From an uncultured archaeon (GTDB lineage: Archaea; Aenigmatarchaeota; Aenigmatarchaeia; GW2011-AR5), in the NCBI GenBank assembly GCA_964373695.1, contig CAYJVT010000028.1:1-10091 (forward strand): DNA of 10,091 nt. The letters are read 5' to 3'. This document shows positions 3,247 to 10,091 of the stretch, in pieces. Below the pieces are notes generated by a model. That model saw only the letters and a list, made by a program, of their open reading frames with translations, did no database searches and was not told where the DNA came from. Within the stretch, counting starts at the first letter, position 1. Each line of letters begins with the position of its first letter. The position numbers and the translations under genes were made by a program.

Positions 3247-5667
3247 TTAGCTGTTTTCTCTCGCCCGTTCTTCCGCAAATGCGATCTGCCTGTTTATTTC
3301 TCTCTTGATGCGCGATACCCTTTCGGAGGAGATTTCTGCAGAAGTCTCCGAAACGTCTATGGACCCGCTTCCGTCCTGCGAAACCAGCCTGACTCTGTAC
3401 TCAAACTCTTCGGGCTCGATTCTGCCATCATGGTCCCTGTCGTTGAATGAATATTCCTCGTATCTTGTGTAGGTTTTCGAGCCCTCGGTCGTTGTCCCGA
3501 TATTCCTTCTCATAGTAAAGCTGAATTCAAGTGTATTAGAATCCCCCCGACCGCCCTGCGGTATGTAATCTCCATACACCGTTCTTGACATTAAATCTAT
3601 TACAATAATTTCTTCAGTTCTATCGTAATTTGTTATCTCCCAGATTCCATCATAGCTCTGTGGCGTGGAGAACGTCACTTTATACACGCCCCTTTTCACT
3701 CTCTCGAAGAGGCCTCGGATGACAGGGCTTGTCAAGTTGTTTTCATAACTATTAAACTCGACCTCTTCAATCTTGACTCCATCGCCTTCCCTGAGCATGG
3801 ACTTGCATAAAGCTGTTCCATGGTCCATGAATACGCCGACGCTTCCAACATAGACTCCATCATCTCTGCTGTACTCCCTTCCTTCCCCTGGCCTTGAAGA
3901 ATAGTCATCCACCCGGCTGCATACGTAGCATGCACCGTCAGTACGCCTGAGACATGCGCTATCTGTCCACGAACCTGCGCTGCAAAGGGAGCCTTCTGAA
4001 CATCCCCGAAATTCCTGCCCCTTCGGGATTATGCCGTAATCGGTGTAATAAAATTCGTCAAAATTTCTCAGCGAGCCGTCATTTATCGAGGCGATTATCT
4101 GCTCGTCGTTTCCTTGGAGATGCCTTTCCGAATAGATGCGCTCGTCATTAGTATATTTTGCTGCCAGCTCGATAATCCTGCTTTTTTCGACTGCTCTTCG
4201 CATTCTAGGCAGCACTTCTCTTTCATAACGGGCGACCTCCTCTGTATTCAGCTGGCTCTCGCGCATCACTGCCCCTATGAAATTGCTTACAATGCCAGCA
4301 TCAGCGCGCACGCCGGTGTCGCATATGGTGGGGTCTATTATGTCCTGCCTTTCCTGAACCTGCATCCATATTCCGTCAGGCGTGCATGCGAAGCATTTGT
4401 TCCTGTCCTCGCCGTCTCCCATGCGGACGGAGTAGGCCGAGCTGCAGGCCTGTCCTCCCCTCGGTCTCAGTTCAGTTGCTCTTGAAATCGTCAAAGCCTG
4501 CGAAACAGTGGTGCAGAATCCGGAAGTCGCATCGCCAGACCATGTGCATCCGTGCACATCGCCGAGCGTCCTCATGTAGATTCCGTCGCTGCCCTGGCGG
4601 CGCCTGCAATACTCTATTTCAGCGTTGCCGCTCATGCAGTCGCAATAGCTTGAAATTGACAGGCAGTTGTTGGTGGTGTCATCATACATATAAGTCGACC
4701 GTATGGCGGCCACGTCGCTCCTGGTATAATATCTACCGGGAAACGTGCAATAGAGCGGGGAACTCACTCCCCCGGATGCCACGCAACCTTCCGGGCATCC
4801 CTCTTTCCATGCTATGGAATACATACCATCCATCGTGAAATCCCTTGTGAATCCGGGACAATAAGGCTCGTCCATGGAGCCAAAACTGGCCGTCTTGAGC
4901 CTCGCTGTTGGTGATATTGTCGATGGGCCGGAGTTGACGCATTGATTGCTTGCGTCATTCCAGTCGCATCGCAGCCCTTGATAATTTGAATTTCCGCAAT
5001 CATACAATGATGACATCTGGCTGCAGCCGTCAGAAACAGCAAGGCAGAAAGGGTTTTCAATGTCGTCTTTCCAGACGCATCGCACGCCGCTGCTCAATTC
5101 GGGGACCGCATCGCACGCCTCTTTTGTTCTCAACGAGGAGCATGAAGAGGTTGTGTTGAATCCGAACGTCTGTAGCTGCCACCTCCCGCATGAGAGCAAT
5201 GCGCCGTCGGCGCCGCTCTGCTCATTCAGGCATCCGCAGTACCACCTCTCGTTCTTCCACTGGCATGTGTATGCAAGAACGTAGTTGCCGCCGGAAAGAA
5301 GATTTCCAGCCTCCACCGGTATTTCAGCTATCACCTCGTTCGACGACCATCCGGGATATTCCGTGTTGTGGGGGAAGGTGAACTGCCGCCACTGCCTCGC
5401 CCTCGGGTTCCATATGTATCCTGTCGTCCATATGTATGTGCCGCTTGCCGTCACGATAGCTTTGCTGTCCTGGTAGCTGGCGCTGACAAGCGTCTCCCCT
5501 GTCTGGACATCCCACGGCACGGCAGCCCAGGACTGGGCCCATGAGGGCAATCCCTGCGATCGTGAAATCGCGTTGCCTTCCGCCACGAAGTCGGAGTATG
5601 ACGATAGAAAAAGCGTGACGGACAATAAAATAATTATTGCAGCAAGCTCTTTCCGAAAGAAATGCAT
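3247..5667 (-). CDS. Large secreted or surface Cys-rich multidomain protein; function unknown
   Basis: 806-aa ORF with an N-terminal hydrophobic signal/anchor followed by EGNAI, about 32 Cys (manual count) in paired patterns, and a DRDHDGRIEPEEF loop near the C-terminus. Confidence 0.85.
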   Translation of the reverse strand: MHFFRKELAAIIILLSVTLFLSSYSDFVAEGNAISRSQGLPSWAQSWAAVPWDVQTGETLVSASYQDSKAIVTASGTYIWTTGYIWNPRARQWRQFTFPHNTEYPGWSSNEVIAEIPVEAGNLLSGGNYVLAYTCQWKNERWYCGCLNEQSGADGALLSCGRWQLQTFGFNTTSSCSSLRTKEACDAVPELSSGVRCVWKDDIENPFCLAVSDGCSQMSSLYDCGNSNYQGLRCDWNDASNQCVNSGPSTISPTARLKTASFGSMDEPYCPGFTRDFTMDGMYSIAWKEGCPEGCVASGGVSSPLYCTFPGRYYTRSDVAAIRSTYMYDDTTNNCLSISSYCDCMSGNAEIEYCRRRQGSDGIYMRTLGDVHGCTWSGDATSGFCTTVSQALTISRATELRPRGGQACSSAYSVRMGDGEDRNKCFACTPDGIWMQVQERQDIIDPTICDTGVRADAGIVSNFIGAVMRESQLNTEEVARYEREVLPRMRRAVEKSRIIELAAKYTNDERIYSERHLQGNDEQIIASINDGSLRNFDEFYYTDYGIIPKGQEFRGCSEGSLCSAGSWTDSACLRRTDGACYVCSRVDDYSSRPGEGREYSRDDGVYVGSVGVFMDHGTALCKSMLREGDGVKIEEVEFNSYENNLTSPVIRGLFERVKRGVYKVTFSTPQSYDGIWEITNYDRTEEIIVIDLMSRTVYGDYIPQGGRGDSNTLEFSFTMRRNIGTTTEGSKTYTRYEEYSFNDRDHDGRIEPEEFEYRVRLVSQDGSGSIDVSETSAEISSERVSRIKREINRQIAFAEERARENS

Positions 5668-8045: not shown

Positions 8046-8103
8046 AATTGCAGCAATAGACTATTTGATTATAGCGGGGTAGAGCAGCCTGGAGTGCTCG
8101 TCG

Positions 8104-8133
8104 AAATTGCATCTTTCTGGTGCATATACGAAT
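8104..8133 (+). other. tRNA intron 1, position 29/30, 30 nt
   Basis: BHB central helix TCGT(8098-8101)/ACGA(8128-8131), bulges CG|A and AT|G, inner hairpin TGCATC/GGTGCA. Confidence 0.85.
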
Positions 8134-8141
8134 GGCCCATA

Positions 8142-8155
8142 AGCTGTTCTAGGAC
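8142..8155 (+). other. tRNA intron 2, canonical position 37/38, 14 nt, relaxed BHB
   Basis: Central helix CCCA(8136-8139)/TAGG(8150-8153) with one C-A mismatch; bulges TA|A and AC|A. Confidence 0.8.
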
Positions 8156-8161
8156 ACCCGG

Positions 8162-8191
8162 AAGCAAGAACCACATATTCTTGCTGGGTAC
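8162..8191 (+). other. tRNA intron 3, position 43/44, 30 nt
   Basis: Central helix ACCC(8156-8159)/GGGT(8186-8189), bulges GG|A and AC|A, perfect 8-bp inner stem AGCAAGAA/TTCTTGCT. Confidence 0.88.
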
Positions 8192-8207
8192 AGGTCGTAG
8201 GTTCAAA

Positions 8208-8231
8208 TGTCTTTGCATCAAAGACTGAAAA
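8208..8231 (+). other. tRNA intron 4, T-loop position 59/60, 24 nt
   Basis: Strict BHB: outer GTAGG/CCTAC, central TTCA/TGAA, bulges AA|T and AA|T, inner stem GTCTTTG/CAAAGAC. Confidence 0.92.
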
Positions 8232-8242
8232 TCCTACCCCCG

Positions 8243-8368
8243 CTATTGTAATATTTTATCCAGTTTATTGTAATGCTTGGGGTTATTTGTTCCGACTGTT
8301 GCAAGCCATTTTCTCATCTGATTCTTTCCGTTTATTCTAAGTCTTATTTTACCCTTATCCAGCGCCTG
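8243..8368 (-). pseudogene. C-terminal remnant of a LAGLIDADG-like endonuclease domain
   Basis: QALDKGKIRLRINGKNQMRKWLATVGTNNPKHYNKLDKILQ* resembles the 'LRIxGKxxxxKWxxxIGxxNPKH' end of archaeal LAGLIDADG domains (from recall). No LAGLIDADG helix is present, and the 5' part abuts the palindromic element. Confidence 0.55.
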
Positions 8369-8369
8369 A

Positions 8370-8417
8370 ATTGTCAATGACCACCGCCTGAAGACGGTGG
8401 CTTGTCTGCAAAAGAGC
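8370..8417 (+). mobile_element. 48-bp palindromic element, copy 1; resembles an IS200/IS605-family (TnpB/IscB-type) subterminal hairpin end
   Basis: ATTGTCAATGACCACCGCCTGAAGACGGTGGCTTGTCTGCAAAAGAGC. The layout GTCAA..[stem]-CTRAAG-[stem]-GCTTG is typical of such ends (from recall). No transposase in the window. Confidence 0.6.
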
Positions 8418-8434
8418 AAAGCTCTTTTGAGATG
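8403..8434. repeat. Bulged triloop hairpin module
   Basis: TGTCT-G-CAAAAGAGC-AAA-GCTCTTTTG-AGATG. Confidence 0.85.
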
Positions 8435-8596
8435 CCAAAGACCTTTATGAGAAACCAACCTTTTATGTCAACAAATGAAGTATCGGAAGCCCTCTCTATG
8501 GGGTATGATACTACACTGAAGTATCTTATAGAACTGCATAAATCAAACAATATAAGTCTAAAAATGGTCGGCAATAGAAGGTTCTGGTACAAGTAA
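8432..8596 (+). CDS. Small winged helix-turn-helix protein, possibly N-terminally truncated (54 aa from ATG8432)
   Basis: MSTNEVSEALSMGYDTTLKYLIELHKSNNISLKMVGNRRFWY fits the HTH-plus-wing pattern of small archaeal wHTH proteins. The track's TTG8402 start lies inside the palindromic element. Confidence 0.65.
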   Translation: MPKTFMRNQPFMSTNEVSEALSMGYDTTLKYLIELHKSNNISLKMVGNRRFWYK

Positions 8597-9895: not shown

Positions 9896-10055
9896 ATTGT
9901 CAACGGCCACCGCCTAATCACAAGTCAAGCGAAGCTTGACTTTGATCCTTCAAAGAGCGCAGCTCTTTGGGGTGTTGAAATTGCTTTGCAATTTCACACA
10001 TTCACAGAAGCCTTCGGCTTCTGATGAAAAGGCGGTGGCTTGTCTGCAAAAGAGC
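9896..10055 (+). mobile_element. Palindromic element copy 2, interrupted in its loop by a 112-bp hairpin cassette
   Basis: Joining 9896-9916 to 10029-10055 gives ATTGTCAACGGCCACCGCCTAAAGGCGGTGGCTTGTCTGCAAAAGAGC, 44/48 identical to copy 1. Perfect 10-bp stem 9906-9915/10030-10039. Confidence 0.75.
9917..10028. repeat. Array of four non-identical bulged triloop hairpins
   Basis: A 9917-9946 (loop GAA), B 9947-9972 (GCA), C 9973-10000 (TTT), D 10001-10028 (TTC); no spacers between them. Confidence 0.9.
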
Positions 10056-10091
10056 TTTGGTTTTCATACATTTGTGCATTCAAGTGCAACA

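Follow-up and report, generated by a model that had tools for sequence, protein, structure and literature searches.

IS200-type insertion elements move as single strands, with a Y1 HUH transposase that recognizes the hairpins at their ends, and the single-strand transposition of IS608 and ISDra2 is described as 'peel and paste'. According to a previous study of Haloquadratum walsbyi, repeats of ~110 bp named SMR-A insert, without target duplication, in the near-terminal palindromes of palindrome-associated transposable elements (PATEs, a term that stems from Haloquadratum) and of IS605-type elements, and the mechanism by which they land in these haloarchaeal palindromes is still called enigmatic (Dyall-Smith et al. 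2011, PMC3119063). Small palindromes also form BIMEs, which are mosaic arrays of oriented REP palindromes (PMC2817692), and REPINs, which are inverted doublets of REP palindromes; REPs are mobilized by RAYT Y1 transposases and occur in one to three sequence types per genome, with a conserved 5' tetranucleotide (PMC2817692, PMC3116915).

The window, that is, the whole stretch of DNA analyzed here, is a complete contig (C28) of 10,091 nt from the genome of a DPANN archaeon of the Aenigmatarchaeota, which amounts to 1.02 Mb in 60 contigs and is 91% complete. This genome is referred to as G000, its congeners as G001 and G002, and contigs by C numbers. Near its right end, the window carries a 112-nt cassette of four triloop hairpins inside a subterminal palindrome (H1) of a non-coding repeat, family A. 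The closest precedent is the insertion of SMR-A in the PATE palindromes of Haloquadratum. Like a PATE, family A is transposase-free, has neither terminal inverted repeats nor target duplications, and shares its near-terminal palindromes with an IS200/IS605-type element; like SMR-A, the insert is ~110 bp long, has inverted terminal parts and lies within a near-terminal palindrome without target duplication. Unlike PATEs and SMR-A, to which there is no sequence similarity, it is found in a DPANN archaeon and not in a haloarchaeon, the insert is built of 26-30-nt perfect triloop hairpins that vary in number and identity, and family A has smaller modules in its other loops too.

The cassette also resembles BIMEs and REPINs in being made of intergenic short imperfect palindromes with bulge-defined orientation, inverted neighbors, variable copy number and a link to an HUH Y1 enzyme, and two of its units form an inverted doublet like that of a REPIN. 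However, the units differ in sequence, the linked enzyme is of the IS200 type and fails the RAYT model, and the arrays are nested in the loops of another element and not free-standing. Membership in the REP/RAYT system was therefore rejected on the enzyme model and on the sequence conservation of the units. The features shared with IS200/IS605 elements such as IS608 and ISDra2 are a 130-aa Y1 HUH transposase, subterminal hairpins and the absence of inverted repeats and target duplications, and a short sequence may likewise be favored just before the left end, whereas the copy in the window lacks a transposase gene and the loop of its right-end hairpin is filled by a 112-nt insert. An earlier note on this DNA, made from the sequence alone, had known of no description of such an arrangement, but both the SMR-A insertions in PATE/IS605 palindromes (PMC3119063) and the BIME mosaics (PMC2817692) were already published. 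The novel aspects are the lineage of the host, the family as such, modules that are very small and defined by structure, the occupation of all loops of the element by modules, and the fact that copies differ mainly by flipped loops.

Architecture of the cassette

The family-A features of the window, including the cassette, are as follows.

8371..8446, + strand: second, truncated family-A copy; its H1 loop is empty (TGAA), and its second hairpin holds two nested mini-hairpins
9897..9905, + strand: family-A terminus, right end of the IS200-like element in transposase orientation (boundary common to ~20 copies with unrelated flanks)
9906..9914, + strand: 5' arm of H1, the subterminal palindrome (folding, repeat finder, covariation over copies)
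9917..9946, + strand: unit 1, with a basal stem of 4 bp, a bulged C, a stem of 9 bp (9922-9930/9934-9942) and a GAA loop
9947..9972, + strand: unit 2, with a stem of 8 bp (9951-9958/9962-9969), a GCA loop and a weak basal stem
9973..10000, + strand: unit 3, with a basal stem of 4 bp, a stem of 9 bp (9976-9984/9988-9996), a TTT loop and a bulged C in the 3' arm
10001..10028, + strand: unit 4, with a basal stem of 3 bp, a stem of 8 bp (10005-10012/10016-10023), a TTC loop and a bulged A in the 3' arm
10031..10039, + strand: 3' arm of H1 (repeat finder, folding, covariation)
10040..10091, + strand: continuation of the family-A scaffold, a second hairpin with remnant nested mini-hairpins (matches C13, C52 and C31)

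The outer stem H1, recognized by a repeat finder and in the sequence itself, is 9 bp long (9906-9914/10031-10039) and encloses the four abutting triloop hairpins. Inspection of the sequence agreed with the earlier note that 9917-10028 is tiled by units of 30, 26, 28 and 28 nt, and all four units have a perfect inner stem of 8-9 bp, a 3-nt loop and a C:G closing pair. In units 1, 3 and 4, a basal stem of 3-4 bp is separated from the main stem by a single bulged base. Slight deviations from the shared architecture concern unit 2, whose basal stem consists of only two C:G pairs and a T.G, and unit 4, the first two bases of which are unpaired. Unit 4 is related to unit 1 in inverted orientation, and the two resemble each other in their basal stems and have a bulged pyrimidine; thus, the core of the cassette is an inverted doublet of units 1 and 4, and units 2 and 3 are located at its center. 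The insert had also been described as sitting precisely in the H1 loop. It does lie within this loop, but the empty loop reads TTCA or TGAA in other copies, so the insertion point is resolved only to ~2 nt.

Folding gave a five-way junction on either strand, as had been expected of a transcript. The free energies as RNA were -78.7 kcal/mol (z -9.6) and -76.9 kcal/mol (z -9.2), respectively. DNA folding of the cassette together with H1 gave -49.1 and -49.2 kcal/mol on the two strands (z -9.2 and -10.0), and none of the shuffled sequences reached the fold stability of the cassette region. The main stems of the four units comprise 34 Watson-Crick pairs and not a single G.T pair. The cassette is hence genuine, far beyond chance and strand-symmetric. 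Moreover, the same cassette is present on four or five further contigs of G000, and a diverged version is present in a second MAG of the genus, which disposes of the chimeric assembly that had been named as an alternative: the cassette is no assembly artefact.

The host element and its transposase

Family A is a non-coding element of ~113 nt with ~20 copies in G000, which have unrelated flanks and often lie at contig ends, so that the copy numbers of both family A and the cassette are approximate. The shortest complete copies (C5:39295-39407 and C9:55-168) are 113 nt long and consist of four hairpins in a row between unrelated termini, that is, without terminal inverted repeats. H1 begins ~10 nt from one terminus and the opposite end hairpin ends ~7 nt from the other, and inspection of the flanks of four complete copies (C5, C9, C11 and C23) revealed no direct repeat that would indicate a target-site duplication. 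In the window, the copy that holds the cassette runs to the contig end, and its stretch 10040..10091 is shorter than that of C44 and C6 through a deletion between two CTTTG motifs.

Full-length relatives with 71-90% identity, several per genome, were found in seven of the 19 genera of the family. The H1 helix is 99% paired over 19 copies from seven genera, in which three pairs are changed on both sides, and the hairpin at the opposite end of family A also covaries; these genomes are draft MAGs with repeats at contig ends, and kin genomes are not independent. At the orthologous Pus10 locus of G002, there is no family-A copy on either side of the gene, compared with one on each side in the window, and the element is therefore mobile, or was so recently. 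Beyond these genomes, an 18-nt pattern of the host arms gave mostly chance matches in public genome contigs, and a scan of metagenome contigs for unit 1 with its flanks gave no match.

The earlier note had suggested a co-occurring Y1 or RAYT HUH nuclease. A Y1 gene is indeed present in the genome, flanked by the same hairpin type, but it is IS200-type and not RAYT. A single complete Y1 HUH transposase gene was found in G000 (C52:1357-1749), besides one fragment. The 130-aa protein of the complete gene, whose translation shows the HUH motif and the C-terminal Tyr region, scores 97.3 bits with the NCBIfam IS200/IS605 model NF033573 (cut-off 55) and 98.9 bits with Pfam PF01797 (cut-off 23), and only 19.2 bits with the REP-associated tyrosine transposase model NF047646 (cut-off 80). 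On C52, an H1-type hairpin directly follows the transposase stop on the opposite strand and a degenerate form of the other family-A end lies upstream. In G017 (three copies) and G016, too, the stop codon of the transposase gene is followed by a hairpin of this type (CCACCG-type), and in G051:C26 the Y1 transposase gene lies exactly between both family-A ends, one of which is of the terminus type found at 9897..9905. Family A is therefore a PATE-type deletion derivative of an IS200-like element, with H1 as its right-end subterminal palindrome, in agreement with the transposon-like end that had been proposed for this site.

The transposase copy of G000, the ends of which have diverged, may be inactive. 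An intact Y1 gene was not found in two congeners that carry the element, these MAGs being only 76-81% complete. Among the 44 genomes, family-A copies were detected in 12 (G000 included) and Y1 genes in 19; with a partial overlap and incomplete MAGs, co-occurrence is too weak a signal to rely on. Nesting is also seen within the autonomous element, since the leader of the Y1 gene (G000 C52:1290-1345) is a 12-bp hairpin whose loop encloses a GAA-triloop mini-hairpin. A reading of the element end as an omega-RNA of TnpB or IscB was rejected, because no TnpB/IscB gene adjoins any copy; Cas12f-like matches are located elsewhere in the genome, on C11.

Family A is an undescribed IS200-derived repeat family, to which much of the repeat content (~1%) of these DPANN genomes of ~1 Mb is due and which disrupts their assembly. 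It is also a second case, phylogenetically distant from the first, of small repeats inside the end palindromes of IS200/IS605-type elements.

Variation among copies and origin of the cassette

Cassette sites in G000 are located on C28, C16, C10, C7 (43383-43476) and C34. The cassette lies within the H1 loop on C28 and C34, the copy on C34 being broken off at the contig end, with its other half probably at the contig end of C7. At C7:43383-43476, three of the units are found within the other end palindrome of the element, and the orientation of the cassette relative to its host is identical in both family-A palindromes. On C16 and C10, one host arm is swapped for another repeat sequence, which fits the expected outcome of recombination between cassette copies in different hosts. 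In the H1 loop of G002, units 1 and 4 are kept (one stem pair of unit 1 is changed and compensated), while two different inner hairpins replace units 2 and 3. A 2-unit cassette of units 1 and 4 only resides inside an unrelated palindrome in G001:C38, and a further 2-unit copy in G001 has no host stem. Unit 3 recurs in a different array on G002:C38, and in the genus g5 an H1-type stem encloses two other mini-hairpins. The expectation that copies would vary in their units was thus borne out: a cassette has four, three or two units, their identity differs, and the host palindromes are of three different kinds.

Over ~112 nt, only one point change and two independent inversions of 3-nt loops separate the copies within G000. 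On C16 the loop of unit 1 is inverted and the bulge has not moved, and on C10 and C7 the loop of unit 3 is inverted. Such flips contradict the rule that a loop reading GAA, GCA or AAA always goes with a bulge in the 5' arm of the same strand, which the earlier note had derived from the single copy in the window.

Mini-hairpin modules are not confined to H1; they occupy the apical loops of all four scaffold hairpins of family A, and the longer family-A copies consist of the scaffold plus two or three mini-hairpins. Modules were found in the loop of the second hairpin on C22, C44 and C6, of the third on C12, C13, C35 and C52 as well as in G041 (another genus), and of the fourth on C11, C23 and C12. 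Loops make up about one-fifth of the scaffold, and four of four insertion sites in loops would be expected in ~0.2% of cases under uniform insertion, by a naive estimate. No consistent target duplication was found around the nested modules. Across the whole of G000, 150 perfect triloop hairpins with a stem of at least 8 bp were counted, compared with 10-24 in shuffled sequences; 114 of them lie outside long ORFs, gene calls here being simple long-ORF calls. Among these hairpins there are 88 distinct 8-nt arms, and the only features the arms share are a loosely A-rich pattern and a C preceding the loop. On both strands, the 5' arms are rich in A and the 3' arms rich in T.

We consider that the feature is probably nested selfish DNA acting at the DNA level, i.e., a modular repeat inside the end palindrome of an IS200-derived PATE. 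In this scenario, the 112-nt insert, a small modular repeat, would have landed in the unpaired tip of the H1 palindrome, and modules would enter loops because loops are the single-stranded parts of a folded strand. The route might be insertion of the IS200 type, with a folded single strand offering its unpaired tip, as the H1 loop can read TTCA on the transposase-sense strand, which would be the preferred flank of the left end of the element. The 4-mer 5' of the left end (n = 24) is TTCA in seven copies, TTTA in five, ATCA in three, and TTGA and CTCA in two each, although these bases are possibly the element's own; the genome frequency of TTCA is 0.7%. The left end of the G051 element is preceded by TTGA. 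Every cassette is preceded, on the transposase-sense strand, by TTCA or CTCA; however, this TTCA partly coincides with the basal stem of unit 4 and could be part of the module. Homologous and microhomology recombination between look-alike modules would subsequently shuffle, delete and chimerize them, and intrastrand template switching would keep the arms perfectly complementary and flip the loops.

Genesis of the hairpins in situ, although we regard it as unlikely, is a serious rival to insertion. It supposes that palindrome tips are fragile and that the DNA breaks or the polymerase stalls at these points; fold-back priming or template switching would then generate new perfect mini-palindromes at the center, so that arrays grow by mutation without any transposition of pre-existing units. 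That every stem is perfect and that loops flip between near-identical copies would follow from such a process, and additions do occur at symmetry centers, namely in loops and between units 1 and 4. G000 and G041, which belong to different genera, have a homologous nested hairpin in which four of eight stem positions differ, all of them compensated, with the flanks conserved. Moreover, the closing pair is 5'-C...G-3' in 46 of the 88 distinct arms and G...C in only four, which fits a bias governed by hairpin stability, and no donor copy of the inner pair (units 2 and 3) was found outside the cassette in G000. An empty and a filled copy of one genomic site were not found for the cassette, and growth in place may thus have occurred instead of insertion. 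On the other hand, the same multi-unit cassette, with the same boundaries, sits in three unrelated palindromes, and unit 3 recurs in another array of G002, which demands movement or recombination beyond local growth. Fold-back synthesis would also copy neighboring sequence, whereas the stems of the units are unrelated to those of the host.

The earlier note had favored an integron- or CRISPR-like accretion system, in which a dedicated enzyme captures structure-defined units of ~28 bp and adds them in order at one site. The number and identity of units do vary at the same host loop between genomes, and the units have in common their architecture and not their sequence, but we find this explanation highly improbable. 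There is no fixed site, since modules reside in four different loops, in other palindromes and in tRNA genes; no leader-proximal order or polarity was seen; and no integrase or adaptation gene adjoins any copy, the sole linked enzyme being an ordinary IS200-type transposase. In addition, the chimeric copies point to recombination, which explains them. An integron- or CRISPR-type array was likewise rejected for the window itself, where the neighboring genes encode Pus10, RNase HII, AspRS and enolase.

A broader proposal goes beyond nested selfish DNA at this locus. In these archaea, apical loops of DNA hairpins might be specific landing or seeding sites for perfect triloop mini-hairpins of 26-30 bp that are defined by structure and not by sequence, building self-similar arrays in transposon ends, other palindromes and the loops of tRNA genes, driven either by an IS200-type Y1 enzyme acting on minimal single-hairpin substrates or by fold-back and template switching at the tips. 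This generalization is speculative, and we would rather doubt it at present. Very small, variable among close relatives and prone to loop flipping, the modules form a convenient small system in which to ask how hairpin tips are acted on by single-strand transposases or by template switching, and in what way hairpin modules end up as removable inserts of tRNA genes.

RNA-level readings, tRNA genes and other repeats

A structured non-coding RNA, or a 3'-UTR element acting as a stabilizer or terminator, would explain the very stable fold and the compensatory changes in the stems by selection on the RNA, with the variable hairpins as expansion segments. Many copies start a few to ~100 nt past a stop codon and are co-oriented with the upstream gene, and the A-rich 5' arms and T-rich 3' arms on both strands resemble bidirectional terminators; related hairpin modules also lie within tRNA genes, where removal from the RNA is needed. 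The orientation of copies relative to neighboring genes is compatible with an RNA role as well as with replication-strand bias. However, a scan of the whole window against Rfam 15 gave no match at E values up to 1, the element is multi-copy, non-syntenic and missing at the orthologous G002 locus, and its ends flank a transposase gene. Folding is equally good on both strands, there is no G.U among the 34 main-stem pairs, and loops flip to their reverse complement between copies that are 96-97% identical. Selection for a conserved RNA is thus improbable in our judgment and fits poorly; the loop inversions, the perfect Watson-Crick stems, the equal folding of the strands and the lack of an Rfam match point to dynamics at the DNA level. 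Individual copies may still serve a secondary function in transcripts, such as at their 3' ends.

Minute inversions at hairpin loops and the correction of quasipalindromes by template switching are known from chloroplast non-coding DNA and from bacterial mutagenesis. The cassette is similar in that loops flip to their reverse complement and arms stay perfectly complementary in otherwise identical copies, but minute inversions are sporadic and affect single hairpins, whereas flips are here the dominant difference among the copies of a repeat family. We infer that the upkeep and the flipping of the palindromes take place in the DNA, through template switching from arm to arm or inter-arm recombination. 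For annotation, such arrays should not be labeled as RNA genes, CRISPR-like arrays or omega-RNA without further evidence.

An archaeal bulge-helix-bulge intron was considered by inspection of 9906-9921 and 10024-10039 for two opposite 3-nt bulges with a 4-bp helix between them, and was rejected, as the AAAA before the 3' arm cannot pair with the bases after the 5' bulge.

ARAGORN called no tRNA in the window, where a tRNA gene with a visible CAT anticodon region is nevertheless located at 8077-8250 (+ strand). In comparison with the uninterrupted 3' part of its G002 ortholog, it contains four extra segments of ~14-30 nt, one of which is a 7-bp triloop mini-hairpin in the T-loop, within or just after TTCA; these segments would need removal from the RNA. 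The orthologous tRNA in G002 (C43, upstream of Pus10; L206:1100-1400) is apparently interrupted close to its 5' end; the insert is long, has coding potential and might be a homing-endonuclease intron. A short distance upstream of a family-A copy, another tRNA-like gene (G000 C44:4250-4460) has a GC-rich triloop mini-hairpin in the region of its T-arm, and the stem of this mini-hairpin (CTGCGGG/CCCGCAG) is the same as the stem that hosts the 2-unit cassette in G001.

Two other repeat families were also noticed. One of them, with the CTGCGGG/CCCGCAG palindrome and a hairpin of the AGTATGGATACT type, is present in G000 (C16:9700-9760, C23:11060-11130 and C10:150-200) and in G001:C38, also hosts mini-hairpins and forms chimeras with family A. 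The other is a different family of ~95-bp repeats with a CACTATA-type motif, which occurs at 1-26 of the window and at many contig ends (C24, C33, C50 and C57), and is inserted into family-A copies at TA sites (C22:1-60 and C45:673-928).

Finally, the window also contains an 806-aa ORF at 3247-5667 (- strand), which lies among housekeeping genes and has a weak EF-hand match and no Pfam family above the cut-off.
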